A stretch of 64,000 nt of DNA, from contig JAZDKG010000044.1 of the NCBI GenBank assembly GCA_043803205.1, forward strand, positions 2,503 through 66,502, given 5' to 3'. The notes below the pieces were generated by a model. That model did no database searches and was not told where the DNA came from. It was given only the letters and a program-made list of their open reading frames with translations. Shown one piece after another: positions 1,947 to 36,347 of this stretch (positions are counted from its first letter, which is position 1; each line of letters begins with the position of its first letter). Position numbers and translations under genes: made by a program. This DNA comes from Planctomycetota bacterium. Its GTDB lineage: Bacteria; Planctomycetota; DG-23; JAZDKG01.

Positions 1947-1971
1947 GCGGCGCTCCTCCCGGAGGGTTTTC

Positions 1972-7409: not shown

Positions 7410-7516
7410 GGTTTGACCTCCTGTTCAAGAAAGGCTCTTGACAACCTTCCTTGTACCGAGAGGTGTTTAGGCGGTTGTGAGGGGGAAACTAGATTTGGGT
7501 GAAAGAGCGGATTTGG

Positions 7517-9289: not shown

Positions 9290-9292
9290 GGC

Positions 9293-9979: not shown

Positions 9980-10095
9980 CGTTTCCTCCTGACCGAGTGA
10001 TTCGCCGCAGGATCAGAGTATCGGCATTCGTGTTAGGAAACGGTCAGGCCTCCGTGAGTTTCTTGTTTCTATCGCGCGTGCGCGTGTCGGTCCCC

Positions 10096-17849: not shown

Positions 17850-20204
17850 TCAGGGGCTGTGCGATGGCGCAGGCGCGCGTCGAGGCTGCGGATTCGATCG
17901 CGTGTCGGACACGCGCAGCTCCATCTTGATGCGATGTGCGCCGCCGTCGCAGAAATGCTCCGGAACAGCACAACCTTCTACTCGTTCACCATCGATGGTA
18001 AGAAAGGATGGCGTGGCAACTCCCGTTGAAGATTCGCCATTCATGATCACGTCGAACCGCGTGCCGTGGAAGATCAGATTGCGGACGGAGCGCGCGGGCA
18101 GTTCGATGTCCTCGAAGGAGAGCTTACCATCGTCGGTGCGCACGCCAACCCGGGACAGGATGAGGTCTACGGCGTGACCCGCAGTCTCTGTGTACGCCCA
18201 GCCGCGCACCCAGTCGTTGTGCGGTCCCCACGCCTCCTGGGGGCCGTGCTTGAAGAGGGCGGCGAAGGTGCGCTCCCGAAGGGCGCGGCTCTCGCCTCGC
18301 AGGCCTTGCACGCGCAGGCCCTCGATCACGGGATGGTTGAGATACATCCACACGCCTCCGTCCCACCATCTGTTGGCGAAGTGGGGGTCGTTCAAGGCGA
18401 TTGTGGGGATCGGCGCCTCCGTCCAGAACTCGTCGGCATTGAAGAGGTGCTTGAGGAGGGCGCCCGTCTGTTCGTTGTCGGGGAAACCGCCGAAGAAGGC
18501 GACAAAGGCGTCGGCGGCGAGGATGTCGATGCGCTCATCTTTCGTTTCGTCCCGCACGAGGTAGATGCCCCGCGCGGGGTCCCAGAGTTTGAGGTTCGCA
18601 GCGGTTCGGATGGCGTCGGCGCCGGCGTCGAAGGCCTCGGCGTCGGAAGCGCGGCCGAGGACGCGCGCGATGGCGGCGAGGCTGCGGTAGTCCCGACTGA
18701 CGCAGGCGGAGTCCCCCACGCCGACGACGGAACGGGAGTCGGGAGTCGACCGACGGGTGATTTCGTCTGATTCCCCGATGAGGCCCGAGGAGGCGCGGCG
18801 GAGGTTGTCGCCGTCGGCATCGTACTGTCGCATGGTGCCCTCGACTTGGGCGACGGCTCGATCGTAGAAGCGCGCAAGGAAGTCCTTGTCGCCCGTAAGC
18901 TCGTACGTCTTCCAGATCTGCCAGGCGGTGTTCGTGCATTGCCCCGCCGAAGCCCCGCTGACGGCGAACTGGTTCTCGAGAATGCTGTCGACGAAAGCGG
19001 GATAGACGAAACGCATGCCGATAATCGCCATGATCTCGTCCCATTGCCAATAGCCGATGTAGTTGTACTTCGCGTCAGGGATGAGGCTTGCGCTGGCGAA
19101 GCCGGGGGCGTCGCCGGGGACGGTCGCCTGAAAGAGGGTCTGGGTGCAGGAGTAGTAGAGCTGGGCAAGCGGATCGTCGCCCTCGGGCTGAGGGCCGTTG
19201 GAAAGCAGGGCGTTCCACAACCCCTGCACCTCGGCGGCGGCGGCGGAATAATCGCGAGCCAAAGCGGCTTCGGCGCGCGTGCGAGCCTCCTCGGCGCTTG
19301 TCGTGCTCAGTCCAAGGGCGACCTTGAACTTGAGCGTTTCCCCCGGCGAGAGGTCGCCTGGAAGGAGAAGCGCGAAGGAGACGGGCTGGGAGTTGTCGGC
19401 GAGAGTTGCCTCCGAGGGTCCGACGGCTGAATGCAACAGCATCTGGGTGAGCGCTTCTCTGGGCGTGCCTTGACAGGCGAGGCCCTGCGGGACAGGACGG
19501 CTCAGAACCCAGCAGGAATAGAAGGTGACTTGCTTGCGGGTGGGAAGGTCCACAAAGGTGTCGGAGCTCTCGGCGAGGGAGCGCGCCGGGTCCACCCGCA
19601 TATGTCTGGGGACCTTGGGATCCCGGCACATGTAGGCCGGCGATCCCGCGAAACCTTCGTGGGCGCCGAAGGCGGCAAGGCTGATCCGCAAGGCCGTGGG
19701 ACTCGGGTTCGCGAGTTCGATCTCGGAGAGCACGGAGTCGGGGGTTGGCATGGTGGTGCGGGCGCTGGCGGACAGGTTGGCGGGTTCGCCTTTGAGTTTG
19801 TCGATCGCTCCGGAGGTGACGAGTTCATGGGGCGCCCAGACTCTGCCCCGGAAAGGATTGACGGGCTTTGCATCGTCGAGGACTACGACTGCGAAGGCGG
19901 GGTTCAGATTCCATGCGGTGAAAGACCGCACGTAGCCGATGGGAGCGCACTCGCCGCCGAGTTCCTTGTCCTGCCAGAGCGCGGGTCCCCTGGCGGCGAC
20001 ACCGCAGAGGGAGAGGGGGAGCGAAAGAGTCTCGTGTCCCGGCGCGTCGCGCAGAAAGTCGCAGTAGTCGCGAAGGATCCCTCCGCTATAGCGGGCGGGC
20101 TCGGTCTCGAGAAGACAAGCCGGCCTTGCCTCTCCACCCTCTTGTGCCAACAAAGGCAAGGAGAAAAGAAGAACGATGAGAGGAAGCGCATGCTTGGTTA
20201 TCAC
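17850..20204 (-). CDS. Secreted six-hairpin (alpha/alpha)6 glycoside hydrolase, GH63 / MGH1-like
   Basis: The GTG at 20204 is preceded by GGAGG and yields the signal peptide ITKHALPLIVLLFSLPLLAQ. Also has a YIGYWQWDEIMAIIG motif (WxWD of GH63-like enzymes) and a long alpha-helical catalytic region. The track start at 20345 (TTG) is probably too long. Confidence 0.7.
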   Translation of the reverse strand: MITKHALPLIVLLFSLPLLAQEGGEARPACLLETEPARYSGGILRDYCDFLRDAPGHETLSLPLSLCGVAARGPALWQDKELGGECAPIGYVRSFTAWNLNPAFAVVVLDDAKPVNPFRGRVWAPHELVTSGAIDKLKGEPANLSASARTTMPTPDSVLSEIELANPSPTALRISLAAFGAHEGFAGSPAYMCRDPKVPRHMRVDPARSLAESSDTFVDLPTRKQVTFYSCWVLSRPVPQGLACQGTPREALTQMLLHSAVGPSEATLADNSQPVSFALLLPGDLSPGETLKFKVALGLSTTSAEEARTRAEAALARDYSAAAAEVQGLWNALLSNGPQPEGDDPLAQLYYSCTQTLFQATVPGDAPGFASASLIPDAKYNYIGYWQWDEIMAIIGMRFVYPAFVDSILENQFAVSGASAGQCTNTAWQIWKTYELTGDKDFLARFYDRAVAQVEGTMRQYDADGDNLRRASSGLIGESDEITRRSTPDSRSVVGVGDSACVSRDYRSLAAIARVLGRASDAEAFDAGADAIRTAANLKLWDPARGIYLVRDETKDERIDILAADAFVAFFGGFPDNEQTGALLKHLFNADEFWTEAPIPTIALNDPHFANRWWDGGVWMYLNHPVIEGLRVQGLRGESRALRERTFAALFKHGPQEAWGPHNDWVRGWAYTETAGHAVDLILSRVGVRTDDGKLSFEDIELPARSVRNLIFHGTRFDVIMNGESSTGVATPSFLTIDGERVEGCAVPEHFCDGGAHRIKMELRVSDTRSNPQPRRAPAPSHSP

Positions 20205-20361
20205 GTTGAGCCTCCACGCGAGGAGCTCTCCCGGCGGAGACGACCCCCGCAATGTAGCTGTTCGTCCCCCAAGGGGCAAGGGAGGGGTGCGGAGCCTTGC
20301 AGCAATGGTCAATGCGCTGTATGATTCAAGAACATGATGGAACAATCGGTGTATTAGGGGC

Positions 20362-20390
20362 TTGACCGGCAGGACAGAGGGCAGTAATCT
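20362..20390 (+). promoter_or_regulatory. Sigma70-like promoter candidate (TTGACC-N17-TAATCT) for the ATPase-kinase operon
   Basis: Hexamers at 20362-20367 and 20385-20390, about 125 nt upstream of the ATG at 20515. Confidence 0.35.
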
Positions 20391-20514
20391 TATCTGTCAG
20401 GGGGAGGCTGGGAGTTCGAGGTACGGAGGGGGCGGCTCGGTTTTGGTGTGTGACGGGGGCGGCTGGCGATAGGCTCGGAAACGGAAGGTCGGCCTGAAGA
20501 GGGGATCGTACGGG

Positions 20515-22497
20515 ATGACAACGGACGCCAAGAAGGGCAAGTTCGGGGAACTCCTGGTACAGGCTGGGCTCGTTACGCAGGCCCAGCTCGATCAGGCGCT
20601 CCAGGTTCAGAAAGAGCAGGAGGACCGCCAGAGCATCGGGAGGATCTTGGTCGATCTGGGGTATCTGACACAGAGGAGACTGCGCGGGGCGGCGAAGAGG
20701 TTCGGGAAGCGCTTGCTCGTCGGGGAGCTTCTGGTGACGGAGGGGGCGATCACGCGCAAGCAATTGGAGAAAGCTCTGCGGGAGCATAAGGCGACCGGGC
20801 ACTCGTTGGGGAAGGTCCTCGTCGGCGCAGGCGTCGTGAGCGAGGATGACCTCGCTCGGGCGTTGGGCAGACAGCTCGATATGCCATATATGGTTCCGCA
20901 CGCCGGGATGGTTGACATGCAGGTGTTCACCCGCTTGCCGGAGCAATTCATCCGGAGCAACTCGGTGCTTCCCGTCGCGGAGAAGGACGGGGAGGTCACG
21001 GTGGTGGTGGCGGACCCCGTGGACGGCGGGCTCATCCAGAGACTGGAGAAGGTGCTGGGGGAGAACCTGCGTCTGACTACGTCCAGCAAGTCCCGCATCG
21101 ACAAGGTGATCGAGGAGTTGATGTTCCGGAGGGAACTGGGCATCGGCGCGCAGGGGATGCCGGAGGATGAGGAGGGGACGGCCTCCGTCAGCCTGTCGAT
21201 CGACAGCGTGTCGATGACGGGCGGACGCGGCGAGCGGGGCCACGAGAGCATCTTCGACGGGATCCTGCTGGACGCGGTGAAGAAAAAGGCGTCGGACATC
21301 CATTTCGAGCCCCAGCGGGACCGCGTGCGGGTCCGCTATCGCATCGACGGGATGCTCGTGGACGTGACGCGGGTCCCGCTTTCGCTGGCGGGCCCCTTTG
21401 TGCGACGCGCTAAGGCGCTGGCAAGGCTCAGCAGCTACGAGACCCGCAAGCAGCAGGAGGGGAGACTGTCGGTCGAGGTGGATGGAGAGCAGTTCGACCT
21501 GAGGGTTGGCACGTTTCCGTCGATCTTCGGCGAGACCATGGCGATCCATTGTTTCTCACGGGAGATCGGCAGGAGGAGGAGGCTGGACGACCTGGGGATG
21601 CACCCGGGGGTGCTGGCGACCTTCCGAGCTTCGGTCGAGCGCAGCCTCGGCGCGACGCTCTTTGTCGGACCGACGGGTTCGGGCAAGACGACGACCTTTT
21701 ATACGGTCCTGAGTCATCTAAACGACGGAACGCGGAAGATTATTTCTGTGGAGGCCCCGGTGGAGCTGACCCTGGAGGGGGTCGTCCAGCACAGCCTTCA
21801 GGAATACGAGCCGGCTGAAATGGTCGGGGGACTGCTGAGCGCGATGCAGCACGATCCGGACGTCATCGCGCTGGGCGCGATCGTGTCGGACGAGGTGGCG
21901 GAAAAGCTCCTCGAGGTGGCGATGATGGGACACAAGGTGTTCTCCACCATGCATGCGGAGGACGCTGTGAGCGCGCTCGTGCGGCTACGGAACCTGCGCG
22001 GCACCGGCTCGTTCCTCGCGTGCTGCACGATCGTCCTGGTGGCGCAGGTCCTCGCGCGCAGGACCTGCCGGCGCTGCGCCGAAGTCTACATCCCGTCCCC
22101 GAAACTCGTGAGCGAGTTCGAGGTCAAAGACGTGGATCTGGACGCAATCGATTTCCGCCGGGGGATCGGTTGCTCCGATTGCATGGGCACGGGCTTCCGG
22201 GGCAGGACCGCCATCTTCGAGGTGATGGAGGCCGGGGCGGAGATGCAGAAAGCCCTGCGCGAGGGGACAAACGTGCGGGAGATCCGACACGCGATGCGCA
22301 AGGGACCGAAGTTCGTCTCTCTGCGACAGGCGGGGTTCCTCAAGGCGGCTCAGGGACTGACAACCCTTGAAGAGGTGGCGCGGGTGATGGCGCCGGCGCG
22401 CGAGGAGGGTCTGGGCGGGGAGGCGCGTACCCTCGATGAGCTTTGCCGCTTGGCAAACGTCACCGTGGGACAGGGGTTCCGGGAAAGGAAGGGGTAG
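20515..22497 (+). CDS. Type II secretion / type IV pilus-family ATPase (GspE/PilB/MshE-like) with tandem MshEN/T2SSE_N motifs
   Basis: Walker A GPTGSGKTTT and Walker B/Asp box (PDVIALGAI). C-terminal tetracysteine module CRRCAEVY...CSDCMGTGFRGRTAIFEV. Four N-terminal 24-aa [RK]xGxxLVxxGxxxxxxLxxALxxQ-like motifs at residues 9-120. Confidence 0.85.
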   Translation: MTTDAKKGKFGELLVQAGLVTQAQLDQALQVQKEQEDRQSIGRILVDLGYLTQRRLRGAAKRFGKRLLVGELLVTEGAITRKQLEKALREHKATGHSLGKVLVGAGVVSEDDLARALGRQLDMPYMVPHAGMVDMQVFTRLPEQFIRSNSVLPVAEKDGEVTVVVADPVDGGLIQRLEKVLGENLRLTTSSKSRIDKVIEELMFRRELGIGAQGMPEDEEGTASVSLSIDSVSMTGGRGERGHESIFDGILLDAVKKKASDIHFEPQRDRVRVRYRIDGMLVDVTRVPLSLAGPFVRRAKALARLSSYETRKQQEGRLSVEVDGEQFDLRVGTFPSIFGETMAIHCFSREIGRRRRLDDLGMHPGVLATFRASVERSLGATLFVGPTGSGKTTTFYTVLSHLNDGTRKIISVEAPVELTLEGVVQHSLQEYEPAEMVGGLLSAMQHDPDVIALGAIVSDEVAEKLLEVAMMGHKVFSTMHAEDAVSALVRLRNLRGTGSFLACCTIVLVAQVLARRTCRRCAEVYIPSPKLVSEFEVKDVDLDAIDFRRGIGCSDCMGTGFRGRTAIFEVMEAGAEMQKALREGTNVREIRHAMRKGPKFVSLRQAGFLKAAQGLTTLEEVARVMAPAREEGLGGEARTLDELCRLANVTVGQGFRERKG

Positions 22498-22501
22498 AAC
22501 G

Positions 22502-25500
22502 GTGGGGAGAGCCCGAAGAAAAAAGGCGGAGCGACACCTCGCGGCCGGACAGTGGGAAGAGGCCGTCGCGCTGTACCGCAAAGACAAGGCTTGGGACGCC
22601 CTCGCCGACGCGCATGAGAAACGGGGCGAATACCTCGAGGCGGCGGAGGCCGCAAAGGAGGCGCGACAGAGCGAGAGGGCGGCGGAGCTCTACGAAAAGG
22701 CGGGGGCGTACCGTCAGGCCGCGGAGATCTGGATCTCCATGTCGCGGGGAGAGCGGGCGGCCGTCGCCCTCGAAAAGGCGAAGCACTTCGAAGCTGCGGC
22801 GGACGTCTACGCGCGGATCGGCAGGCCGGCACAGGCGGCCGCCATGCTGGCCAGCGCGGGAAAGCATGCGGAGGCGGGGAAGCTCTACGAGCAGGCGGCG
22901 GAATTCGCCAGCGCCCTCGAAATGTACGAGTTGGCGAATCAGCCGGAGCGCATGGCTGTGATGTTGGAGGGATTGAACGATTTCGAGGGGGCGGCCCGAG
23001 TGCAGCTTCGCATGGGCGAGAAAGGCAAGGCCGCCGAGCTTTTCGAGCGGGCGCAGCGACCCATCGAAGCGGCCCAGTGTTACCTCGAACTGGGGGAGTT
23101 TCGCAAGGCGGGTGAGCTTCTAGCGGGGGCGGAACATGTCCTGGCGGCCGCCGAGGCCTATGAAAAGGACGAGACGACTCTCGGACAGGCTGCGGAGCTT
23201 TTCCGGACCGTGCTGCGGGGAGAGGAAGCTTGGCGGCAAGAAGTGCAGGGGCCGGCCCTCTGCCTCGGCATGTCGGAGTGCGGCCGGTTCATCGGCGTGG
23301 GGGCGGCTCAGAAGTTGAGGATGTTCGACGAGGAGGGCGAGCTTCTCTGGTGCTTCGTTCCGACTTGGGGCGGAGAGCCGCGGTGCTTGGCCGTCTCGCC
23401 GGCGGGTCTTGTGGCGCTCGGGTGCGACGACGAGTATCTGTACCTCCTCACGACGGAAAAAAAACTCCTCTGGGCTCAGAAGCTCCCGGGAGAGGCGATG
23501 AAGGTGAGCATGGATGCCGAGGGCAAGGTGATCGCATGCGTCACCCGGGGAAACGAGCTCGTGTGTCTCAGCGGCGATGGCAATCGGAAGTGGAATCATC
23601 ATGAAGAGAGCATCATCTGGGACGTGTCGGTGGCGCGGGACGGCAAAATGATCGCTCTGGGTCTGGGGGACGGCCGGTGCGTGGTGATGACGGAGCGCGG
23701 CGAGAAGGTGGGGGAGTACCAGGCGGCCAAGTGGGTGCACAGCGTGTCCCTGGGGGACCGAGGGTCCTGTGTCGCGTTGGGGACGGGGATGCAGGGGGTG
23801 GAGCTTGTGGCCGGCGAGACGTGGCGACCGGTGTGGTCGGTGCAGGGGGAGAGCTTCGTTCACAACGTGGCTCTGACCGCGGATCGCAAGGTGCTGGCGG
23901 TGGCGGATGCGGAGGCGGTCCTGCGGGACGAGTCCGGGACGGTGATCTGGAGGTACGACGGGCAGGAGCGACTTCTGGGGGGATGCGTGGATGCGGCCTT
24001 GACGCGCGCCGCGTTTCGATGCGCGGGCAAGAAGGTCCTGCGCGTGAACGTGGGCGACTGCAGGGTGCAGGCGGCGCGGGACTTCGCGGGCGCCGGGAAA
24101 CAACGCGAGGCGGGAGAGCTGTACGAGGAAATGGGCGATCACGAGGCCGCGGCGGAGATGTTCAGCCAGGCCGGGGATTACGCGCGCGCCGGGCACAACA
24201 CGGAGAGCGCGGGACTCTCCCTCGAGGCGGCGGAACTGTACGAGCGGGCGGGTGAGTTCGAGAAGGCGGGGAAGCTCTTCGAGGGGCAGGGCGAGCTCGC
24301 GCGCGGGGCGGTGTGTTTCAAGAAGGCGGGAGAGCTTCTCAAAGCGGCGGAGCTCTACGAGCGCAGCGGCGACCTCGAGAAGGCCTGCGAGCTCTTCGAG
24401 CAGGGAAAAGAGCACGGGAAGGCTGGAGCGCTTTACCGGGCGCTCGGCGACAGGACGGGGGCCATCCGGGCGCTCTCGTGTCACGTGGAGGCGCATCCCG
24501 AGGACTGGGAGAGACGCTTCGAGCTGGGGACGCTTCTGGAGGCCGACGGACAGTACGACCTCGCTCTCGGACAGTTCCAGCAGACGGCGGGCATCGAAGA
24601 GTGCCGTAAGAGGGCGGTCGTGCACGTGGCGGGGTGCTTCATGGGGAAGGGGATGTACGAGATCGCCGTCGAGCGCTACAAGGCCGCCATCGAGGGGAGC
24701 GAGGCCGTCACGTGGGAAAACCGGGAGGTCTATTACGGGCTGGGCAGGGCCTACCACCTCGCGGGACACTACCCGGAAGCGAAGCGAATCTACGAGAGCA
24801 TCCTCGCGATCGACTACCGTTACAAGGATGTCGCCGAGCGCCTGGAGGACGTGCGAAAGCTGAGCTCCGTATTCGGGCAGTCGGCGGCCGCCTCGCAGAT
24901 GGGAAGCTACGCCAGCACGATGGTCGCGGATCCGGGCTTCCAGAACCTCTCGGCCGAGAAGAAGGAAAGGTACGTCCCGCTCCGCAAGCTGGGCGAAGGG
25001 GGCATGGGCACGGTCTACCTCGCCGAGGACAAGCGGCTCAATCGGAAAGTGGCCCTCAAGATGCTTGCCGCGGGGCTGCGTGCAGACGAGAAGATGCGGC
25101 TCCGGATCGTCCAGGAGGCCCAGCTCAGCGCGCAGGTCGTCCACCCGAACGTGGTCGCCGTCTTCGACGTGGGCGAAGAGCAGGGCTGCTCCTACGTGAG
25201 CATGGAATACGTGGAGGGCGACACCCTTCGCGACCTCCTCGAAGAGAAGGAAACTTACACCCCCGGCGAGTGCGTGGAGCTTCTCCTGCAGATCACGGGC
25301 GGACTTGCGTGCGCTCATGAGAAAGGCGTGTCCCACCGGGACATGAAGCCCGAAAACATCATGGTGACGAAGAACGGGACCGCAAAGATCATGGATTTCG
25401 GACTGGCGATCCTTGCCGGCGCGACGAGGCTCACCATGCCCGGCGGGGTCAGCGGGACTCCTCTCTACATGGCGCCTGAGCAGATCCGCGGGGAGTCCAA

Positions 25501-25765
25501 GCTCACCCCGGCCGTGGACGTGTACGCGGTGGGCTGCCTCGCGTATGAGCTTCTTGTGGGACGACCGCCCTTCGCGCAGGGGAACGTCGCGACGCAGCAC
25601 CTGCATCAGCCGCCCAAGAGTCTGAGGGAGCTGCGCCCCGAGGTGCCCGAGGCCCTGGAGGGAGTGATCCTCAAGTGCCTCGAGAAAGAGCCGGCGGACC
25701 GGTATGCAAACGGGGGAAGCCTCTACGCCGCCCTCCAGGAGGTGGCGAGAGGCTTGGGGGCATAG
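22502..25765 (+). CDS. Multidomain Ser/Thr protein kinase: 13-residue helical repeats - beta-propeller - 13-residue repeats - TPR - C-terminal Hanks kinase
   Basis: The GTG at 22502 lies 4 nt after the ATPase stop, behind AAGGAAGGGG; the ATG at 22436 would overlap the ATPase by 62 nt. Kinase motifs are GEGGMGTVY, VALK, HRDMKPENI, DFG and APE. No TM segment. Confidence 0.85.
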   Translation: MGRARRKKAERHLAAGQWEEAVALYRKDKAWDALADAHEKRGEYLEAAEAAKEARQSERAAELYEKAGAYRQAAEIWISMSRGERAAVALEKAKHFEAAADVYARIGRPAQAAAMLASAGKHAEAGKLYEQAAEFASALEMYELANQPERMAVMLEGLNDFEGAARVQLRMGEKGKAAELFERAQRPIEAAQCYLELGEFRKAGELLAGAEHVLAAAEAYEKDETTLGQAAELFRTVLRGEEAWRQEVQGPALCLGMSECGRFIGVGAAQKLRMFDEEGELLWCFVPTWGGEPRCLAVSPAGLVALGCDDEYLYLLTTEKKLLWAQKLPGEAMKVSMDAEGKVIACVTRGNELVCLSGDGNRKWNHHEESIIWDVSVARDGKMIALGLGDGRCVVMTERGEKVGEYQAAKWVHSVSLGDRGSCVALGTGMQGVELVAGETWRPVWSVQGESFVHNVALTADRKVLAVADAEAVLRDESGTVIWRYDGQERLLGGCVDAALTRAAFRCAGKKVLRVNVGDCRVQAARDFAGAGKQREAGELYEEMGDHEAAAEMFSQAGDYARAGHNTESAGLSLEAAELYERAGEFEKAGKLFEGQGELARGAVCFKKAGELLKAAELYERSGDLEKACELFEQGKEHGKAGALYRALGDRTGAIRALSCHVEAHPEDWERRFELGTLLEADGQYDLALGQFQQTAGIEECRKRAVVHVAGCFMGKGMYEIAVERYKAAIEGSEAVTWENREVYYGLGRAYHLAGHYPEAKRIYESILAIDYRYKDVAERLEDVRKLSSVFGQSAAASQMGSYASTMVADPGFQNLSAEKKERYVPLRKLGEGGMGTVYLAEDKRLNRKVALKMLAAGLRADEKMRLRIVQEAQLSAQVVHPNVVAVFDVGEEQGCSYVSMEYVEGDTLRDLLEEKETYTPGECVELLLQITGGLACAHEKGVSHRDMKPENIMVTKNGTAKIMDFGLAILAGATRLTMPGGVSGTPLYMAPEQIRGESKLTPAVDVYAVGCLAYELLVGRPPFAQGNVATQHLHQPPKSLRELRPEVPEALEGVILKCLEKEPADRYANGGSLYAALQEVARGLGA

Positions 25766-25822
25766 GGGACCTTTCGACCAGGAAGTTGCCGGCGATTCCG
25801 CGGACGCGCCGTCGGGCTGGAG

Positions 25823-26221
25823 CTACTTGCCGAGGATCGCGCCGACCCTCCTTAGCAGCCGGTCGCTCTCCACGGGCTTTTCGAGGTAACCCGCGGGCTC
25901 GACGCCGTAGTACGAGCGCACGTCGGCCGCGGAGAAGCGCACGCCGAGCTTTTCCCCGACGCCCGTGAGAAAACACACGGGGATGCGCCGCAGGACCTCG
26001 TCCTGCACAAGCTCATTGAAGATCTCGAAACCGTTCTTCCCGGGCATCTGCACGTCCATGAGGATGAGGTCGGGTTTCTCCTTGCGGGCGGCGGCCAGTC
26101 CCGCGTCTCCGTTGGGCGCGCTCACGACGGTATAGCCGCCTGCTTCGAGCATGGCGGCGACGCCCTGAACGGCGTCCGGCTCATCGTCGACAACCAGGAT
26201 CTTCTTCGGTGCGGGTGGCAT
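25823..26221 (-). CDS. Stand-alone CheY-like response regulator (receiver only), copy 1
   Basis: MPPAPKKILVVDDEPD...DLILMDVQMPGKNG...LEKPV. 132 aa with an AAGGAG RBS, 29 nt downstream of the FHA-GAF kinase. Confidence 0.85.
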   Translation of the reverse strand: MPPAPKKILVVDDEPDAVQGVAAMLEAGGYTVVSAPNGDAGLAAARKEKPDLILMDVQMPGKNGFEIFNELVQDEVLRRIPVCFLTGVGEKLGVRFSAADVRSYYGVEPAGYLEKPVESDRLLRRVGAILGK

Positions 26222-26250
26222 TTCGGGGTCTCCTTTCTCTTGAACTACGC

Positions 26251-27891
26251 TTACTGCTCGTCCGAACTTTCCGGGGGAGTGGAGGCATCGGTCGGCGGCG
26301 CCAGCGGGAGGCGGAGGATAAAGGTGGTGCCGCGGCCGACCTCGGAGTCGACTTCGATCTCCCCGTGGTGTTCCCGGATGATTTTGTGGACGACCGGGAG
26401 CCCCAGGCCGGTTCCCTTGGCGCCTTTCGTCGAAAAGAAATCCTGGAACAGGCGGGCCTTGACCTCGGGGGACATGCCCGAGCCCGTGTCCTGGATCATG
26501 ACGGCGAAGCGGCCGGACGCGTTCGGCGCCGCCGTCCGCAGGCACACCTCGGAGGATGGAGTCTGCGCGCAGGCGTCCACAGCGTTGGAGACGAGGTTGA
26601 GGATGCAGCGGTAGACGGACACGGGATCGACGCTCGCCTGCGGCAGCGCGTCATCCAGGTCGTATCGGATCGTTGTGCCCTGGGAGGCGGCCTTCTCGCG
26701 GTACAGGTCGCCGACGGTGCGGATGAGGTCGTTGATGTCGGTGGCCTCATACCGCGGGACCCGCTGCTTCCCGTAGGACAGCATGTCCAGCACCAGGTCG
26801 CTGAGAAAGCCGCTGTTTCGCTTCGTGATATCCCATCCCTGGAGGATCTTGGCGCGGTCGTCCGTCTCGATCCCGCGGTCCACGATGAAGGACCCGCCCT
26901 TGATGCCGTTCAGGATGTTCTTGATGCAGTGGGCTAGGCGCGAGACGGCCTCCCCGATCGCGGCCATGCGCTGCGCGCGCAGCGCCTCCTGATGGAGCTT
27001 GGCGTTGCGCAGCGCTACGGCGAAGACGGCCGCAAGACACACGATGAGCTGCAGGTCATCCTTCTCGAAAGCGCGGCCGGGACGGCGTGTAGCGACGTAG
27101 ATCAAGGCCAGAACCTCGCCGTCGACGGCGGCCGGTGCGCAGAGGACGGAGGTGGTCGCTGTGCTCACGAGGCTCTGCGAGCCCTGGAAACGGGAGTCGT
27201 CCAGCGCGCAGGCGCTTAGGATCGCCTCCCGGGTGTCGCAGGCGTGCCGCAGAATGGTATTGGACGGAGCGAGATCCGCTCCCTCTGCGCCCTTTCGCGA
27301 CGCCACGATCGAGAAGCCCGTGTTCCCGACGTCGGGCGTAAGGATGAAAGCGCTGTCTGCTTGCGAGAAGGTCTTGAAAAGCTCGTTTAGGATCGCCTCG
27401 GACAGGGACTCCACGGTGAAGCCCCCGACCGCCGCGCGGCTGACGCTGTAGAGGACCTGCAGGCGTCGCCGCAGCGCGCCGACCGGGTCGCTGACGCCCG
27501 AGGCGCTGGAGAGATCGTCGGAGGCTCGCGTCGCGATGAGCGTCGCGGTATCCATGCGCAGGGAGGTGCGCGGCGCCTCGGGCGGACCGGCCGGGGCCTG
27601 ATCCTCGTCCACGAAGACGAGCGTGAACTGGTGGATCTTGATCGTATCACCTGGGGACAGGCGCGCCCGGCGGACCATCTTCCCGTTGAGGAAAGTGCCG
27701 TTGACGCTCTTCAGGTCTTCGAGATAGTAGCCGTCTTCTCCGGTGGTGATGCGGGCGTGACTGCTGGAGACAAACGGATGCTTCAACGGAATCTGGCTCT
27801 GCGGGCTGCGGCCGAGGACGTCGTTGCCGGTCAGACGGAAAAGCTCGTTCCGTGGGGCGCCGCCGTCGTTGATCAGTCGCAGTCCGGCCAT
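26251..27891 (-). CDS. Cytoplasmic FHA-GAF-histidine kinase
   Basis: Start MAGLRLIND at 27891. FHA motifs are VLGRSP...SSSHARI...NGTFLNG. The central region is GAF-like. H-box RLAHCIKNIL, N box NLVSNAVDA, and G boxes DTGSGM and GTGLGLPVV. No TM segment. Track ORF 26251..28701 is over-extended. Confidence 0.8.
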   Translation of the reverse strand: MAGLRLINDGGAPRNELFRLTGNDVLGRSPQSQIPLKHPFVSSSHARITTGEDGYYLEDLKSVNGTFLNGKMVRRARLSPGDTIKIHQFTLVFVDEDQAPAGPPEAPRTSLRMDTATLIATRASDDLSSASGVSDPVGALRRRLQVLYSVSRAAVGGFTVESLSEAILNELFKTFSQADSAFILTPDVGNTGFSIVASRKGAEGADLAPSNTILRHACDTREAILSACALDDSRFQGSQSLVSTATTSVLCAPAAVDGEVLALIYVATRRPGRAFEKDDLQLIVCLAAVFAVALRNAKLHQEALRAQRMAAIGEAVSRLAHCIKNILNGIKGGSFIVDRGIETDDRAKILQGWDITKRNSGFLSDLVLDMLSYGKQRVPRYEATDINDLIRTVGDLYREKAASQGTTIRYDLDDALPQASVDPVSVYRCILNLVSNAVDACAQTPSSEVCLRTAAPNASGRFAVMIQDTGSGMSPEVKARLFQDFFSTKGAKGTGLGLPVVHKIIREHHGEIEVDSEVGRGTTFILRLPLAPPTDASTPPESSDEQ

Positions 27892-27935
27892 GCGCGACTC
27901 CGATTGTGTTCCCGAAAAGATGCGCTCAGGAGTAC

Positions 27936-27963
27936 AGGCTACATGGTAGGATTCCAGGTCAAA
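27936..27963 (-). promoter_or_regulatory. Promoter candidate (TTTGAC-N16-TAGCCT) for the FHA-GAF kinase / RR operon
   Basis: Read on the minus strand; about 45 nt upstream of the ATG at 27891. Confidence 0.3.
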
Positions 27964-28012
27964 TGCGCAAGTGTTTTTCGTCGCCGTCGGACCTTGTCGG
28001 CCAAAGCGGGGC

Positions 28013-28040
28013 TTGCAAAAGGGCTCACCTGACATAGACT
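28013..28040 (+). promoter_or_regulatory. Promoter candidate (TTGCAA-N16-TAGACT) for ptb
   Basis: Hexamers at 28013-28018 and 28035-28040. The ptb ATG at 28093 has an AAGGAG RBS. Confidence 0.35.
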
Positions 28041-28092
28041 GGCGGCGCCTGCCGAGAGGAATTGCGCAGGGGCGGAACAAGGAGAAGACAAC

Positions 28093-29034
28093 ATGAAGAA
28101 CTTCGATACGCTGCTGGAGCTTGTCGAGAAACACCCCGTGCGGAAAGTCGCGGTCGCCGTGGGACAGGACCCGTCTGTGATCGCCGCCGTCGAGGAGGCT
28201 AGAAAGCGCAGCATCGCTGATGCGGTCCTCGTGGGGGACGAGGAGAAAATCCGGGAGGCGGCACACGATGTGGGGGCCAGCCTCGAGGGGACGAAGATCA
28301 CGCACGAAGCGGACCCCATCCATGCGGTTGCCGCCGCCGTCCGGCTCGTGTCGTCGGGAGAGGCGGATATCCTGATGAAGGGATACATCCACACGGATGA
28401 TTTCCTCCGCGGAGTCCTGAACAAGGAGTATGGGCTCCGGACGGGCTCGATCATGAGCCACGTGTTCATCGCCGAGCTCCGTCAGCCCGAGAAGCTCCTC
28501 TTCGTCACCGACGGGGCCATGAACATCGCCCCCGACCTTGAGCAGAAGTCGGCGATCCTTTTGAACGCCGTCTACCTGGCCAAGTCGTTCGGGGTGATGC
28601 AGCCGAAAGTCGCCGTCCTGGCGGCGGTCGAGTTGGTGAACCCGGCGATGCCCGCGACGATGGACGCCGCGGCGCTGGCAAAAATGGCGGACCGGGGACA
28701 ATACGTGCCCGCGTGCATGGTCGACGGCCCGTTCGCCCTCGACAACGCCGTCTCAGCCGCCGCCGCGCGGCACAAGAAGATTGGGGGACCGGTGGCCGGG
28801 GAGGCGGACATCTTGCTCGTCCCCACCATCGAGGCGGGGAACATGCTGGCGAAATCCCTCGTCTACTTCGGGGCGCGAAGGCTCATCGGTCTCCTCGTCG
28901 GCGCGAAGGCGCCGGTGGTGCTGACAAGCCGGGCGGACTCGATGGAATCAAAAATGCTCTCCATCGCAGGTGCGGTCCTGATGGTGAACATGAAGAGGGC
29001 GCTCGCGCTCAAGGTGGGCAAGGTCCATTACTGA
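28093..29034 (+). CDS. ptb: Phosphate butyryltransferase / phosphate acyltransferase (PTA_PTB family)
   Basis: 313 aa with PTA_PTB pattern (ADILMKGYIHTDDFLR..., FVTDGAMNIAPDLEQK, MVDGPFALDNAVS, ADILLVPTIEAGNMLAKS). There is no butyrate or acetate kinase next to it. Confidence 0.8.
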   Translation: MKNFDTLLELVEKHPVRKVAVAVGQDPSVIAAVEEARKRSIADAVLVGDEEKIREAAHDVGASLEGTKITHEADPIHAVAAAVRLVSSGEADILMKGYIHTDDFLRGVLNKEYGLRTGSIMSHVFIAELRQPEKLLFVTDGAMNIAPDLEQKSAILLNAVYLAKSFGVMQPKVAVLAAVELVNPAMPATMDAAALAKMADRGQYVPACMVDGPFALDNAVSAAAARHKKIGGPVAGEADILLVPTIEAGNMLAKSLVYFGARRLIGLLVGAKAPVVLTSRADSMESKMLSIAGAVLMVNMKRALALKVGKVHY

Positions 29035-29051
29035 GAGCGCTGGGGCGGCCT

Positions 29052-29450
29052 CTAGGTCCTGAAGACCTTCCGGACGGTAGCGAGAAGCAGCTCGGGGTCC
29101 ACGGGTTTCTCAACGCAGGCATCCGGTTGATCCCCGAGGAACCCCCCCACGTCGCTCGCCGAGAGATGAATCCCCGTCTTCTCTCCGATCCCCGTGACAA
29201 ACACGACCGGAACATTCCTGAGCGCAGGATCGGCGCGCAGTTCCGTGAAGACTTCGAAGCCGTTCTTCCCGGGCATCTGGACGTCAAGAAGGATCAGATC
29301 GGGCTGGAGCTTTCGGGCGGCGGCCAAGCCTGCCTCCCCGTCCCGGGCGCTGGCGACGGCGTAGCCGCCCGCTTCGAGGACGGCGGCGGTCCCCTTTACA
29401 GCGTCGGGTTCGTCGTCGATGACAAGGATCCTCTTGGGGGCATCGGGCAT
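29052..29450 (-). CDS. Stand-alone CheY-like response regulator (receiver only), copy 2 (paralogue of 25823..26221)
   Basis: MPDAPKRILVIDDEPD...DLILLDVQMPGKNG...VEKPV. Same 132-aa length as copy 1 and alignable to it without gaps. Confidence 0.85.
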   Translation of the reverse strand: MPDAPKRILVIDDEPDAVKGTAAVLEAGGYAVASARDGEAGLAAARKLQPDLILLDVQMPGKNGFEVFTELRADPALRNVPVVFVTGIGEKTGIHLSASDVGGFLGDQPDACVEKPVDPELLLATVRKVFRT

Positions 29451-32500: not shown

Positions 32501-33261
32501 CGGATGATGTATTCGACGCCGTTCCACTCGATTGTCTCGGCGCCGACGTCGATGTTGGCGCGCTGGACGGCCAGGAAGACGTCCTGAAGCATGACGCCGT
32601 GGGCGCGCATGGCGTCCGGGTTGACGTCGATCTGGTATTCCTTGACGTAGCCTCCGATGGAGGCGACTTCGCTGACCCCCTCCGTGGATTGGAGCGCGTA
32701 GCGGATGTACCAGTCCTGGATGGAGCGCAGTTCCCGGAGGTCGAAGCCTTTCCCCTCGACGGTGTACCAGAAGATCTGGCCGAGGGCGGTGGCGTCGGGC
32801 CCGAGGGCGGGGACGACGCCCTCCGGGAGCTGTTGCTGGGCGACGTTAAGACGTTCGAGGAGGCGGGAGCGGGCCCAGTAAAAGTCGACGTCATCGTGGA
32901 AGATGACGTAGACGGTGGAGAAGCCGAACATGGAGTAACTGCGGACCGTCTTGACGCCGGGGATCCCCTGGAGGGACACGGTGAGGGGGTAAGTGACCTG
33001 GTCCTCCACGTCCTGTGGAGAGCGGCCCGGCCAGTCGGTGAACACGATCTGCTGGTTCTCACCGATGTCGGGGATGGCGTCCACGGGAATGGGTTCGCGG
33101 GGGAAGCCCTTCCAAGGGGGTTGGAAGGGCATGACGTAAAGACCCCAGCCGATGAGGAAGGCGAGGAGGAGGAAGACGACGAGCTTGTTCTCGAGGCAGA
33201 AGCGGATGGTGCGGTTGACGACGCCTCTTATCTCGGGACGTTCGGCGGCGGGGGCGTTCAC
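29557..33261 (-). CDS. Heavy-metal-efflux RND transporter, CusA/CzcA family, enlarged (1234 aa)
   Basis: CusA/CzcA-like N-terminus (…VDAIPDIGENQQIVFTDWPGRSPQDVEDQVTYPL…) and RND repeats. The GTG start overlaps the adaptor stop (GTGA). Extra hydrophobic block at about residues 527-705. Confidence 0.85.
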   Translation of the reverse strand: MNAPAAERPEIRGVVNRTIRFCLENKLVVFLLLAFLIGWGLYVMPFQPPWKGFPREPIPVDAIPDIGENQQIVFTDWPGRSPQDVEDQVTYPLTVSLQGIPGVKTVRSYSMFGFSTVYVIFHDDVDFYWARSRLLERLNVAQQQLPEGVVPALGPDATALGQIFWYTVEGKGFDLRELRSIQDWYIRYALQSTEGVSEVASIGGYVKEYQIDVNPDAMRAHGVMLQDVFLAVQRANIDVGAETIEWNGVEYIIRGKGFLKKLSDVENILLKTVENVPIYVKNVATISLGPALRRGALDKEGTEVVGASVVVRHGENPLAVIARLKEKINEIQPGLPRKTLPDGSSSQVQIVPFYDRTDLIKQTLGTLKNALVEEILITCFVVFLLLAHFRSNILISANLPLAIFTAFILMKIFKVDSNLMSLGGIAIAIGSMVDMGIILCENIVRHFNEAHPDEDPLDVIYRAASEVGGAVVTAIATTLVSFLPIFALTGPEGKLFKPLAYTKTFALFASVFAALTVLPAFAHILFKRRRMPVKARTVAYAGLFLVGLFAGWRISLWAGLPIVLAACYLLLEPRLPKKLLRRMPFFTSVLAAFFVLALLTLHWMPLGLGTSLLKNLVFVSVINLSWCSLRFIIVDLYPRILPAFLRHKVVFLSIPAVVIVFGLVVWLGFARVFAWIPAGLQKVGISQEKTRSVPLWVAGQHAFPGIGREFMPSLDEGSYLFMPTVMPHASLGQALDILQKQDRAIRAIPEVDTVVGKIGRAETALDPAPISMIETLVTYKDEYGPPDPQTGKRPRLWRDHIRSPDDIWSEIVRVADVPGSTSAPRLQPIAARIVMLQSGMRAPMGVKVRGQSLEAIERVGYDIARFLKDVPSVEADAVIPDRVVGKPYLEIDIDRERIARYKVNIRDVQDVIEIAVGGIRATTTVEGRERYGVRVRYQRELRDSVEALGRILVPSSEGAQIPLLQLASIRYVPGPQEIKSEDTFLVSYVLFDKRPGYAEVDVVEEAQRYLEAKIASGELVLPPGTHYAFAGSYQNQLNFQKRFSVLLPASLFIIFLILYFQFRSTPVTLLIFAQVAFIWAGGFIGLWLVGQPWFLDISLLGHNLRELFHFRQYNLSVSVWVGFIALFGLATDDAVVITTYLNQIFAARAPSSIAEVRSFVLEGARKRVRPCFMTTATTVLALLPVLTSSGKGADVMIPMAIPIVSGMTVELLAMFVTPVLYCALQEFRLGRRAP

Positions 33262-34799: not shown

Positions 34800-34803
34800 G
34801 GGG

Positions 34804-36234: not shown

Positions 36235-36347
36235 GAGGAGCAGTCCTCCACATGGATAACGTCGGCCCATAGGAGAGGTCACGGTCATTGGGCGCGGACA
36301 TTGTCGCGCCGGTACGAGGAAATGGCAAGGGACGAAGACGCCGCGGA

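Follow-up and report, generated by a model that had tools for sequence, protein, structure and literature searches.

A PilB-like protein with degenerate catalytic residues as the likely signalling partner of a giant Ser/Thr kinase in uncultured Planctomycetes

What does a relative of the pilus and secretion motors do when its gene is followed immediately by that of a giant Ser/Thr kinase? This question is raised by a 64-kb stretch of planctomycete DNA (the whole of which is termed here ‘the window’). A first-pass annotation, made from the sequence alone, had proposed that a complete, possibly c-di-GMP-gated ATPase serves in this locus as a kinase partner rather than as a motor. The evidence for a kinase partner in place of a motor is strong, whereas neither the completeness of the enzyme nor its gating by c-di-GMP is upheld. 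The gene pair and its immediate surroundings are laid out as follows:

20362..20390, + strand: promoter-like site of the first-pass annotation, TTGACC-17 nt-TAATCT; a weak match (8/12 positions), not evidence
20515..22497, + strand: PilB/GspE-family ATPase-like protein, 660 aa; PilB fold, degenerate catalytic residues
22481..22504, + strand: coupling junction, read from the sequence: SD-like GGGAAAGGAAGGGG, TAG stop (22495-22497), 4 nt, GTG at 22502
22502..25765, + strand: soluble Hanks-type Ser/Thr kinase, 1087 aa, GTG start

The junction is just as had been described: four nucleotides separate the stop codon of the ATPase gene from the GTG at 22502, and translation from that codon yields 1087 residues, the length of the corresponding database entry (P0125). 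Direct reading places a purine-rich, SD-like run (22481-22494) immediately 5' of the TAG stop, and the kinase would be co-produced with the ATPase-like protein through termination-reinitiation coupling. In relatives the two genes either overlap by 4 to 41 nt or are separated by 14 to 102 nt. The kinase was also correctly taken to be soluble, as it contains no TM-like segment (maximum KD19 1.45). The claimed promoter-like site, on the other hand, has to be dropped, since it lies under the threshold of a scan that returned no sigma-70-like site anywhere in 19800-26400.

Assignment of the upstream protein to the PilB/GspE family holds in profile searches, in which Pfam returns both MshEN and T2SSE (the latter with E=1.5e-83), and an AF2 model (pLDDT 78.6) has G. 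metallireducens PilB (GmPilB, 5tsh) as its top Foldseek match, with a target-normalised TM of 0.87. The domain order (MshEN/T2SSE_N, N2D, CTD) is that of PilB (G. metallireducens 5TSG/5TSH; T. thermophilus PilF) and of GspE/EpsE, with 31-35% identity and a core TM of 0.87. The protein nevertheless scores only about half of the PilB and GspE equivalog cut-offs, that is, far under both. Its diagnostic positions are these:

20875..21120, + strand: C-terminal subdomain of the MshEN/T2SSE_N domain, aa 121-202 (Pfam PF05157, E=5.4e-14)
21547..21549, + strand: His345, at the position of the arginine finger R286 of GmPilB (alignment to 5zfr/5tsg)
21667..21693, + strand: Walker A GPTGSGKTT, aa 385-393, intact (alignment A1)
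21751..21765, + strand: Asp box EAPVE, aa 413-417; both Glu retained, Asp replaced by Ala
21877..21879, + strand: Ala455, at the catalytic glutamate position (E395 of GmPilB, E391 of M. xanthus PilB; alignment)
22066..22182, + strand: tetracysteine motif CRRC...CSDC, C518, C521, C553 and C556 (22-sequence alignment)
22429..22455, + strand: clade-specific C-terminal tail motif TLDELCRLA, aa 639-647, absent from canonical PilB/GspE

Held in common with PilB and GspE are the Walker A motif (alignment A1 shows no variation at G385, P386, G388, G390, K391 or T393), the Asp-box Glu that binds Mg (E417, equivalent to E357 of GmPilB), the His-box histidines, the tetracysteine motif of zinc type (all four residues invariant among the 22 aligned sequences) and the inter-chain Arg (R515, equivalent to R455 of GmPilB, which like E417 is invariant). 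The differences fall elsewhere. The catalytic Glu is Ala (DPDVIALG-A-IVSD, against DPDVIMVG-E-IRD in canonical PilBs), R286 is His, Ala stands for Asp in the Asp box, and HAED replaces HTND; in addition, the window protein carries an extra N-terminal MshEN_N unit and the conserved C-terminal tail. The role of the catalytic Glu position has been treated in several papers (PMC5424180, PMC11656802, PMC5544727): the residue is reported to be present in all extension ATPases (PMC11656802), and M. xanthus PilB mutated at this position binds ATP normally and is inactive (PMC5544727), while R286 of GmPilB senses the gamma-phosphate (PMC5424180). Because the catalytic glutamate and one arginine finger are missing, the window protein is probably a nucleotide-binding pseudo-ATPase. 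The ‘complete’ ATPase of the first-pass annotation therefore stands as regards its Walker A and tetracysteine motifs, and fails at Ala455, at His345 and at the Ala of the Asp box. A literature search turned up no report of another degenerate member of the PilB family.

The same positions vary across the clade. At the catalytic Glu position, the nine members of the window's own sub-clade carry A, R, T, K, S, G, H, K or Q, and the occurrence of eight different residues among nine proteins suggests an absence of selection for catalysis; at the R286 position, eight of the nine carry His, and Arg is found in all other aligned sequences. All clade members P0001-P0017 have A, T or C in place of the Asp-box Asp; P0018, P0020 and canonical PilBs have Asp. 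Other sub-clades have been deprived of different catalytic residues: in L096 and L097 the Mg-coordinating Glu has become Ala and one His-box His has become Thr. The catalytic Glu and both arginine fingers are retained in sub-clade B (P0011-P0016) and in P0018, so that for some members of the family hydrolysis may remain important, and the ancestral ATPase-kinase pair, judged by these sequences, probably used an active ATPase. Conservation of the tail motif TLDELCRLA extends over P0001-P0018 and P0020, and in the model residues 640-647 form a predicted helix, in a block with a pLDDT of about 89.

Is the kinase gene a regular companion? The adjacency is kept in at least 13 loci whose flanks are unrelated to one another, and each clade ATPase (39-63% identity) with readable 3' sequence is followed by a kinase of about 1085-1163 aa (window, L001, L002, L004, L006, L007, L008, L094, L096, L097, L173 and the P0015 contig). 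In the reverse direction, an ATPase gene stands 5' of the kinases in L089 and L091; in L090 a contig edge lies just 5' of the kinase, and the 3' arrangement is that of L004. The pair is tightly coupled in most loci, and identity to the window drops jointly in ATPase and kinase, from 62/58% to 39/34%, a co-divergence that points to joint inheritance of the two within a single lineage. Searches returned about 17 ATPase and 15 kinase homologue clusters, with a sharp fall in score after each set, and the architecture is rare (about 20 clusters at 50% identity among 1.84 billion representatives). The clade is a small group of uncultured Planctomycetes, an assignment made from the RpoB of the relative L004.

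These data refute a chance adjacency in a single genome, combined with N-terminal motifs that are merely the ordinary T2SSE_N domain of a PilB. Such an account could appeal to the abundance of Hanks kinases in Planctomycetes and to the MshEN/T2SSE_N domain that most PilB proteins carry; but the adjacency persists in at least 13 independent loci, as against one of 80 canonical PilB control loci with a kinase gene, and by comparison with canonical planctomycete PilBs the N-terminal bundle has been duplicated, which leaves this account with virtually no probability.

The machine genes, for their part, are missing from the vicinity, as had been observed. Among the genes called between 10 and 49 kb of the window, Pfam detected neither a platform protein or pilin nor a secretin or prepilin peptidase; scanning the 64 kb in all six reading frames for prepilin motifs gave no pilin; and tblastn with a PilC found no platform gene in the window. 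Across loci, a T2SSF/PilC-like gene is present in none of the 13 of the module, and the window lacks one, versus 62 of 80 canonical PilB loci.

It could be argued that the protein still works as a motor, for a type IV pilus or type II secretion system whose other genes lie elsewhere, and that the kinase merely regulates it, for example by phosphorylation. Family membership by sequence and fold, the retained Walker A, Mg-binding Glu, His-box histidines and tetracysteine motif, and the catalytic Glu of sub-clade B and P0018 would all suit such a motor, and canonical PilB genes do sometimes stand apart from pil genes (PilC is absent from the flanks of 18 of the 80 control loci, many of these flanks being incomplete). 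Yet the window protein has lost its catalytic Glu and an arginine finger, the former position being occupied by eight residues in nine relatives; in other sub-clades the Mg-binding Glu or a His of the His box is gone; the equivalog scores are too low; PilC is never found beside the pair; and the canonical PilBs of Planctomycetes form a separate group (about 33% identity, about 570 aa). A motor encoded apart from its machine is accordingly improbable. Instead, since the residues that burn ATP are lost and the gene lies directly 5' of that of a giant kinase, the pilus-motor-like protein most likely serves the kinase as a signalling partner, rather than driving pili or secretion, a reading, drawn from sequence, to which the conservation of the pair, its mostly tight coupling, its co-divergence and its consistent separation from PilC/GspF all lead.

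The kinase itself appears to be in working order. Pfam identifies TPR, beta-propeller and TPR elements followed by Pkinase, and these matches, together with alignment A4 (15 orthologues) and a 13-residue periodicity, define a layout of an Ala-rich solenoid of 13-residue repeats (about aa 1-250), a beta-propeller (about 255-500), a second solenoid/TPR arm (about 500-810) and the kinase domain:

24974..25705, + strand: kinase catalytic domain, aa 825-1068 (Pkinase E=1.2e-54), catalytic motifs all intact

The G-loop, K853, E872, HRD (945-947), N952, DFG (965-967) and APE (991-993) are invariant among the 15 orthologues, and the activation-loop residues T975, T978 and T986 are conserved in the same alignment. 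The invariance of all of the Hanks motifs suggests an active Ser/Thr kinase.

Further linked genes lie downstream:

26251..27891, - strand: cytoplasmic FHA-GAF histidine kinase, 546 aa, start MAGLRL (Pfam FHA, GAF, HATPase_c)
28093..29034, + strand: phosphate acetyl/butyryl-transferase family gene (Pfam PTA_PTB, E=2.1e-50)
29052..29450, - strand: single-domain response regulator, REC only (Pfam Response_reg, E=9.6e-22)

The histidine kinase gene, convergent with that of the Ser/Thr kinase, is an often-linked accessory that adjoins the pair in six of 13 loci (under half), with homologues in L001, L002, L006, L096 and L173; response regulator homologues adjoin the histidine kinase in L006, L096 and L173, and in L096 the order histidine kinase, response regulator, ATPase, kinase runs along a single strand. 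The transferase gene is tied to the module in two loci, a 77% identical homologue standing beside the response regulator and histidine kinase in L006.

A genomic context that differs in every genome might also bring to mind an anti-phage defence system, with the kinase as effector and the NTPase-like protein as sensor, and the kinase domain does match the PADLOC PD-T4-6 and mad6 kinase models and NCBIfam MADS6. The PADLOC matches, however, span only the generic Hanks domain (aa 814-1084), and the ATPase, histidine kinase and transferase have none; the neighbours are housekeeping or metabolic genes, with no mobile-element or defence genes seen in the module loci and the window; and the ATPase and kinase diverge in step and are tied to two-component signalling genes. 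A role in defence is, for these reasons, very improbable.

If the ATPase-like protein is a signalling partner, its amino terminus is a plausible site of input or docking. Two units precede the C-terminal MshEN subdomain:

20539..20703, + strand: MshEN_N-type unit 1, aa 9-63: motif 1 (K9...Q32), 7-residue spacer, motif 2 (S40...F63)
20716..20874, + strand: MshEN_N-type unit 2, aa 68-120: motif 3 (L68...H91), 5-residue spacer, motif 4 (S97...Q120)

Four MshEN-like motifs had been claimed here, and their positions (24 residues each from aa 9, 40, 68 and 97, nt 20539-20874) are correct. The Gly/hydrophobic framework matches four times, against 0.03 expected from shuffles; both units exceed the NF053729 (NCBIfam) cut-off of 38 (55.1 and 66.6 bits); and the model has four helices at 10-66 and four more at 69-121. 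The strict published consensus, by contrast, is matched by none of the four, and the relaxed published pattern by motif 1 alone. As in V. cholerae MshE (5HTL), each unit has two 24-residue motifs on this framework, and the tandem arrangement resembles the GSPII-A/B/C domains of T. thermophilus PilF; unlike in MshE and PilF, motifs 1-4 have K, S, L and S for the Arg of motif position 1 and Q, F, H and Q for the Gln of position 24, and the spacer of unit 1 has 7 rather than 5 residues. Against MshE, unit 2 reads L68 for R9, H91 for Q32, S97 for R38 and Q120 for Q61.

With two of eight polar Arg/Gln contact positions kept, binding of c-di-GMP is doubtful. These positions are mostly substituted and not conserved across the clade, and a similarly substituted PilF domain (His at the motif I Gln position, Ser at the motif II Arg position) does not bind; the sequence thus lends no support to the proposed gating by c-di-GMP. 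A docking-surface role has been proposed for PilF GSPII-A, and by analogy the N-terminal bundles may be docking surfaces instead of ligand sensors. The wider idea of second-messenger gating gains support, again by analogy, from a distant homologous pair (L134), in which a cNMP-binding domain takes the place of the MshEN units and the kinase shares AAELYE-type repeats and the kinase domain with that of the window.

On balance, the evidence leans towards a dedicated cytoplasmic signalling pair, in which an ATP-binding, non-hydrolysing, PilB-derived and probably ligand-sensing subunit controls or scaffolds the kinase. With the catalytic glutamate and an arginine finger lost, and the P-loop and Mg-binding Glu kept, this subunit would hold ATP without turnover, and would probably still oligomerise. 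Its two MshEN-type four-helix bundles would form an input or docking module, and it would bind the solenoid/propeller region of the kinase and so set kinase activity. One route might be the clustering of kinase subunits, leading to trans-autophosphorylation, with a small ligand or a partner at the N-terminal bundles as the putative trigger. The phospho-threonine output would probably be read by the FHA domain of the FHA-GAF histidine kinase, which would in turn act on the CheY-like response regulator.

Precedents exist for parts of this scheme. M. xanthus PilB, which also has an N-terminal MshEN domain, signals for EPS production independently of ATP hydrolysis (PMC5544727), that is, through its nucleotide or conformational state; it is a working motor encoded in a pil cluster, whereas the protein described here looks like a degenerate paralogue dedicated to one fixed partner, the kinase. 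Domain architectures in which MshEN is fused to Ser/Thr kinases have been listed (PMC5013675) and, compared by that listing, likewise tie an MshEN-type module to Hanks-kinase signalling, although here the bearer of the module is an entire PilB-like protein, which has a gene of its own, translationally coupled to that of the kinase. The degenerate-GGDEF protein FimX is a pseudoenzyme regulator (PMC11656802) that keeps ligand binding without catalysis, as is proposed here, in another fold and with another partner.

The ATPase-like protein might, alternatively, be a substrate of the kinase or a phospho-adaptor, modified for example in its linker (aa 205-245) and recruiting the FHA-GAF histidine kinase when phosphorylated. 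The linker is Ser/Thr-rich and predicted to be disordered (208-240), FHA-domain proteins are frequent neighbours, and tight co-expression suits an enzyme-substrate pair equally well as a regulator-enzyme pair. However, the linker varies in sequence among clade members, and the retained nucleotide-binding residues, the two sensor-type bundles and the cNMP-binding domain of L134 would be left unexplained, so that this role is unlikely. Substrate or adaptor function and the control of the kinase by the PilB-derived subunit are compatible and do not exclude each other.

Two adjoining genes on the forward strand stand out within the window (G+C ~65%) by their codon-position G+C:

20515-22497, forward strand: ATPase-like gene, an ORF of 660 amino acids.
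22502-25765, forward strand: kinase gene, starting at GTG 22502, 1087 amino acids.

The TAG stop codon of the ATPase-like gene (22495-22497) lies between a purine-rich, Shine-Dalgarno-like run (22481-22494) and the GTG of the kinase gene, which follows 4 nt past the stop. The same start is used in a public database entry for the kinase (P0125, 1087 aa); starting instead at an in-frame ATG at 22436 would add 22 residues that are missing from the orthologues. Neither protein contains a transmembrane-like segment when scanned. The ORFs, the 4-nt junction and the soluble 1087-aa kinase had thus been placed correctly by the first-pass annotation of this DNA. Its promoter-like site (TTGACC-17-TAATCT) matches at 8 of 12 positions only, and a scan restricted to the sigma-70-like promoter type identified neither such a site in the region nor a terminator on the forward strand. 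Rfam and tRNA scans of the whole window returned no matches, and the window contains no rRNA, tRNA or marker gene.

When the ATPase-like protein was used as a search query, a clade of ~17 clusters (48-63% identity) was recovered, together with a more distant relative at 39% (P0018), before the matches passed to ordinary PilBs at ~33%. Every clade ATPase for which downstream DNA could be read is followed directly by a protein of 1085-1163 aa with the same architecture as the window kinase. The pair is found at loci L001, L002/L003, L004/L005, L006, L007, L008, L173 and the contig of P0015 (a clade ATPase), and, through a metagenome scan with a clade-specific ATPase segment, at L094, L096 and L097. 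A reverse search with the 813 non-kinase residues of the kinase returned 15 full-length orthologue clusters and then dropped sharply to unrelated repeat matches; among three of these kinases that were looked up, two (L089 and L091) are preceded by the ATPase gene, and the third (L090), which begins at a contig end, shares its downstream arrangement with L004. At the junction, the two genes overlap by up to 41 nt or lie up to 102 nt apart, and identities to the window proteins fall together (ATPase/kinase 62/58% down to 39/34%). The surrounding genes are wholly different from locus to locus (ribosomal protein genes, glycyl-radical enzymes, ruvAB, obg and others). The pairing noticed in the window is therefore conserved in relatives whose flanks are unrelated, and chance adjacency is refuted as an explanation.

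The family is small: an exhaustive HMMER search of 1.84 billion cluster representatives recovered ~20 clusters colinear with the first 800 kinase residues. The RpoB protein of one relative (L004) shares 67-73% identity with named Brocadiia, Brocadiaceae and Planctomycetota MAG proteins, from which we infer that the family, including its member in the window, belongs to uncultured Planctomycetota. In the low-coverage contig L089 (2358-4182), the ATPase gene is split, with the Walker A region (aa ~352-440) missing between the two pieces; either the gene is a pseudogene or the contig is misassembled.

PilB/GspE-type ATPases are generally treated as the motors of pili and secretion systems. In the window, a Pfam search of the called genes between 10 and 49 kb detected no T2SSF, pilin, secretin or peptidase A24 domain, and a scan of every reading frame across the 64 kb gave no prepilin cleavage motif; elsewhere the window carries, among other things, glycoside hydrolases, a pho regulon and a Cus-like RND efflux operon. 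As a control, 80 canonical PilB loci (~33% identity) were taken from among the matches listed in a genome contig search with the whole-clade ATPase alignment, none of which belonged to the clade, and a verified T2SSF gene, from locus L080, was run as a PilC-like query against all loci.

Genes found beside canonical PilB genes and beside the ATPase-kinase pair
80 canonical PilB loci: PilC-like gene in 62; Hanks kinase in 1.
13 module loci and the window: PilC-like gene in 0; Hanks kinase in 12 of the 13 loci and in the window.

In the metagenome scan, a PilC-like gene was likewise present at 39 of 75 non-clade loci, and a kinase at a single one of them (L134, a distant pair). The absence of platform, pilin, secretin and prepilin peptidase genes near the ATPase, as read from the sequence of the window, was thus borne out, and no T2SSF-like gene accompanies the pair at any of the 13 related loci.

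The ATPase-like protein itself retains the architecture of the family. Pfam assigns an MshEN domain to aa 121-202 and a T2SSE domain to aa 246-623 (E=1.5e-83), and the core of an AF2 model (pLDDT 78.6) superposes on that of Geobacter metallireducens PilB (GmPilB; TM 0.87, rmsd ~3 Å); according to this model, the PilB fold, with its N2D and CTD, is intact. Its scores against the curated equivalog models amount to roughly half of the cut-offs (TIGR02538 PilB, 371 bits against 676; TIGR02533 GspE, 332 against 630). Individual residues were mapped onto GmPilB through PDB alignments, with their roles taken from McCallum et al. 2017. The Walker A motif is present (GPTGSGKTT, aa 385-393, with K391 invariant), as are the Mg-coordinating glutamate of the Asp box (E417, equivalent to E357 of GmPilB), the His-box histidines H473 and H480, the equivalents of R257 and of the first arginine finger R271 (the latter R330 here), the inter-chain arginine (R515) and the four invariant cysteines of the zinc motif (C518, C521, C553 and C556). 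Immediately past the atypical Walker B, Ala455 stands in place of the catalytic glutamate (E395 of GmPilB), and His345 takes the place of the second, gamma-phosphate-sensing arginine finger (R286); in addition, the EDPVE Asp has changed to Ala, T411 to Met and HTND to HAED. The description of this protein as a ‘complete’ ATPase was consequently wrong.

Published work describes the catalytic glutamate as fully conserved among these ATPases (PMC5424180, PMC11656802) and reports it in all extension ATPases (PMC11656802). Within the nine members of the window sub-clade, the corresponding position is occupied by A, R, T, K, S, G, H, K or Q, a variety that would be expected once selection for catalysis had gone. 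A second sub-clade (P0011-P0017) keeps the glutamate (Asp in P0017) and both arginines and shares the remaining changes, while a third (L096 and L097) keeps the glutamate and has lost other elements: its Mg-coordinating glutamate is Ala, its P-loop is altered (GPKG/GPKA), and a His-box histidine is Thr. The more distant P0018 and P0020 are canonical at these positions; of the two, only P0018 has a kinase as neighbour. P0020, the product of the nearest outgroup gene (L092, 8001-9905; 36% identity), shares the doubled N-terminal bundle and the C-terminal tail motif; its gene stands directly after a cytochrome oxidase (cox) operon, with no pilus genes adjoining.

A mutant of Myxococcus xanthus PilB at the corresponding glutamate binds ATP with wild-type affinity and is inactive (PMC5544727). 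Together with the lost catalytic residues, the retained Walker A motif and Mg-coordinating glutamate, and the intact predicted fold, this argues that the ATPase-like protein very probably binds nucleotide and does not hydrolyse it. The same losses argue against the idea that the protein serves as the motor of a pilus or type II secretion system encoded elsewhere and is regulated by the kinase; the gene searches covered the window and the related loci, and we judge such a motor role, served by a gene set remote from them, to be decidedly unlikely.

The first-pass annotation had also recognized four 24-residue motifs in the N-terminal region and raised the possibility of gating by c-di-GMP. A scan for the glycine and hydrophobic framework of the MshEN motif recovers all four at the positions originally assigned (aa 9, 40, 68 and 97; 0.03 matches in shuffled sequence). 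They are arranged as two units corresponding to the 53-residue MshEN unit of two 24-residue motifs, the spacer of unit 1 being 7 residues long instead of 5; each motif pair, taken alone, exceeds the cut-off of 38 bits of the NCBIfam ‘c-di-GMP motif, MshE-related’ model (55.1 and 66.6 bits), and the AF2 model places eight helices, as two four-helix bundles, in the first 121 residues. The framework is present in all four motifs, but none strictly matches the published consensus RLGxx(L/V/I)(L/V/I)xxG(L/V/I/F)(L/V/I)xxxxLxxxLxxQ, Arg and Gln contacts included (2, 5, 4 and 1 mismatches in motifs 1-4, counted manually), and motif 1 alone satisfies the looser pattern given in the MshEN paper (PMC5013675).

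At the ligand contacts, two of eight Arg/Gln positions are kept. Relative to Vibrio cholerae MshE (5HTL), unit 2 has L68 for R9, H91 for Q32, S97 for R38 and Q120 for Q61, and unit 1 has K9, Q32, S40 and F63 at these positions. The contact residues vary freely across the clade, in which one orthologue (P0006) has two strict motifs. Unit 2 resembles the GSPII-A domain of PilF, which carries His at the motif I Gln position and Ser at the motif II Arg position, and which did not bind c-di-GMP even with its consensus restored; sequence is not by itself a predictor of binding. Set against this is the report that hydrophobic residues weigh more in binding than do the Arg and Gln (PMC5013675). Given the poorly kept contacts and the likeness to GSPII-A, c-di-GMP binding by the ATPase-like protein appears doubtful, and gating by that ligand as such gains no support from the sequence. 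Regular-expression searches of the window for GGDEF, EAL, HD-GYP and PilZ motifs gave spurious matches only, and thus no local c-di-GMP enzymes.

A broader form of the gating idea fares better, on the strength of the distant homologous pair at L134 (metagenome contig Ga0180009_10003542, 4366-9278). Its ATPase (780 aa) consists of an N-terminal cNMP-binding domain, the C-terminal MshEN subdomain and a T2SSE domain, with all catalytic residues intact; its kinase (~850 aa, with a hydrophobic N-terminal helix) begins at an in-frame GTG 14 nt past the ATPase stop and resembles the window kinase both in its AAELYE-type repeats (32% identity over 227 aa, E=3e-13) and in its kinase domain (34% identity). 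No PilC gene lies near this pair, and its flanks are unrelated. Judged by this homology, the coupling of PilB-family proteins to repeat-rich Hanks kinases predates the window clade or extends beyond it, and the ATPase can apparently carry either of two cyclic-nucleotide-type sensor domains as its N-terminal module. L134 provides the best support for second-messenger gating in general, but not for c-di-GMP in particular.

The kinase combines TPR/SNAP-like repeats, a beta-propeller, more TPRs and a C-terminal Pkinase domain (aa 825-1068, E=1.2e-54). Across 15 orthologues, the G-loop, VAIK Lys, alphaC Glu, HRD, catalytic Asn, DFG and APE motifs are invariant, and the activation-loop threonines T975, T978 and T986 are conserved. 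Two helical arms (aa ~40-250 and ~530-650; window 22502-23250 and 24100-24450) flank the propeller; both are made up of copies of an Ala-rich unit of 13 residues (AAELYEKAGxxxx), and invariant Ala columns recur with that period. A single-sequence AF2 model of aa 1-813 is of low quality (pLDDT 53), its secondary structure running alpha, beta, alpha; weak Pfam matches were to Clathrin, IFT122, WDR35 and SNAP. The layout recalls that of the PVC membrane-coat-like proteins (PMC2799638), in which an N-terminal beta-propeller precedes a stacked helical-repeat domain, whereas here the propeller lies between two solenoid arms. An analogy with NSF/SNAP (a hexameric ATPase beside a partner with a SNAP match) was also considered and set aside: generic helical repeats explain the SNAP match, and the catalytic residues of the ATPase are degenerate.

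A further gene stands convergent to the Ser/Thr kinase:

26251-27891, reverse strand: cytoplasmic FHA-GAF histidine kinase.

Homologues of this histidine kinase adjoin the pair at L001, L002, L006, L096 and L173 (six of 13 loci, the window included), and at L096 the histidine kinase, response regulator, ATPase and kinase genes follow one another on one strand. A single-domain, REC-only response regulator accompanies the histidine kinase at four loci, and a PTA_PTB gene does so at two; the latter is 77% identical between the window and L006, though the ATPases are 48% identical. The clusters occupy 26251-29450 in the window, 15354-18390 in L006, 1351-3365 in L096 and 12871-14942 in L173. FHA domains bind phospho-threonine. 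Taken with its adjacency to the pair, this suggests that the FHA domain reads the output of the Ser/Thr kinase.

A role of these genes in anti-phage defence is highly improbable: the PADLOC matches consist of generic kinase-domain hits, and neither the ATPase, the histidine kinase nor the PTA protein has a PADLOC match, so that no system with all of its component protein models is recovered.

In the mechanism that we propose, and consider slightly more likely than not, the two proteins would be made together through translational coupling; the PilB-derived protein, nucleotide-bound, non-hydrolysing and probably oligomeric, would be a regulatory subunit whose N-terminal bundles take input from a small ligand or a partner protein. 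It would control the kinase, plausibly by clustering its subunits for trans-phosphorylation of the activation loop, where the conserved threonines lie, and output would pass in part through the histidine kinase. M. xanthus PilB offers a precedent, in that its control of EPS production does not depend on hydrolysis (PMC5544727). A more far-reaching version, possible but well short of probable, is that the PilB-derived pseudo-ATPase acts as a second-messenger-gated oligomeric activation platform for a giant Hanks kinase whose propeller-and-solenoid layout looks coat-like, its exchangeable MshEN/cNMP sensor coupling cyclic-nucleotide levels to Ser/Thr phosphorylation, which would feed a two-component pathway in Planctomycetes through the FHA-GAF histidine kinase. 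That the ATPase-like protein is instead mainly a substrate or adaptor of the kinase is unlikely, and is compatible with the proposed mechanism.

Literature searches turned up neither a PilB-family pseudo-ATPase nor a gene pair joining a PilB-like protein to a Hanks kinase; MshEN-kinase fusions are listed in the MshEN paper (PMC5013675) as domain architectures only. The finding is of a PilB-family protein reused for signalling in uncultured organisms, each functional step being one that we infer. If correct, a lineage that has lost catalysis, kept nucleotide binding, separated from machine genes and become locked to a Hanks kinase would show that the fold of a motor can be turned over entirely to signalling, as a subunit, extending the single experimental hint from M. 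xanthus PilB. Specialists in pilus and secretion ATPases would not expect such a result, which lends itself to direct testing: the pair could be expressed in the laboratory and would help to address how giant soluble bacterial Ser/Thr kinases are switched on, what ligands degenerate MshEN-type domains bind, and how FHA domains wire Ser/Thr to His-Asp signalling. For annotation, a ‘PilB’ or ‘GspE’ call in a Planctomycete MAG does not by itself imply a pilus or T2SS.

Several other features of these contigs may be recorded. The Cus-like RND efflux operon (29557-36288, reverse strand) encodes an outer-membrane factor, a CusB-type adaptor with two heavy-metal-binding HMBD motifs and an AcrB/CusA-type pump of 1234 aa, and ends ~100 nt before the REC-only response regulator gene. 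A compact phosphate-starvation cluster (1263-10012, reverse strand), the genes of which were identified by reading their translations, comprises phoU, pstA, pstC, pstS, a porin-like outer-membrane protein, phoR and phoB. A gene for a secreted protein of 1434 aa (57458-61762) lies in a stretch with a G+C of ~0.60, against 0.65 for the window, and a weaker third-position G+C, and may have been horizontally acquired. Finally, an uninterrupted MttB-family (trimethylamine methyltransferase-like) gene in the window (45274-46704), glycyl-radical enzymes and a radical-SAM gene flanking the pair in L001, and pyruvate:ferredoxin oxidoreductase-type genes in L173 together point to anaerobic carriers.
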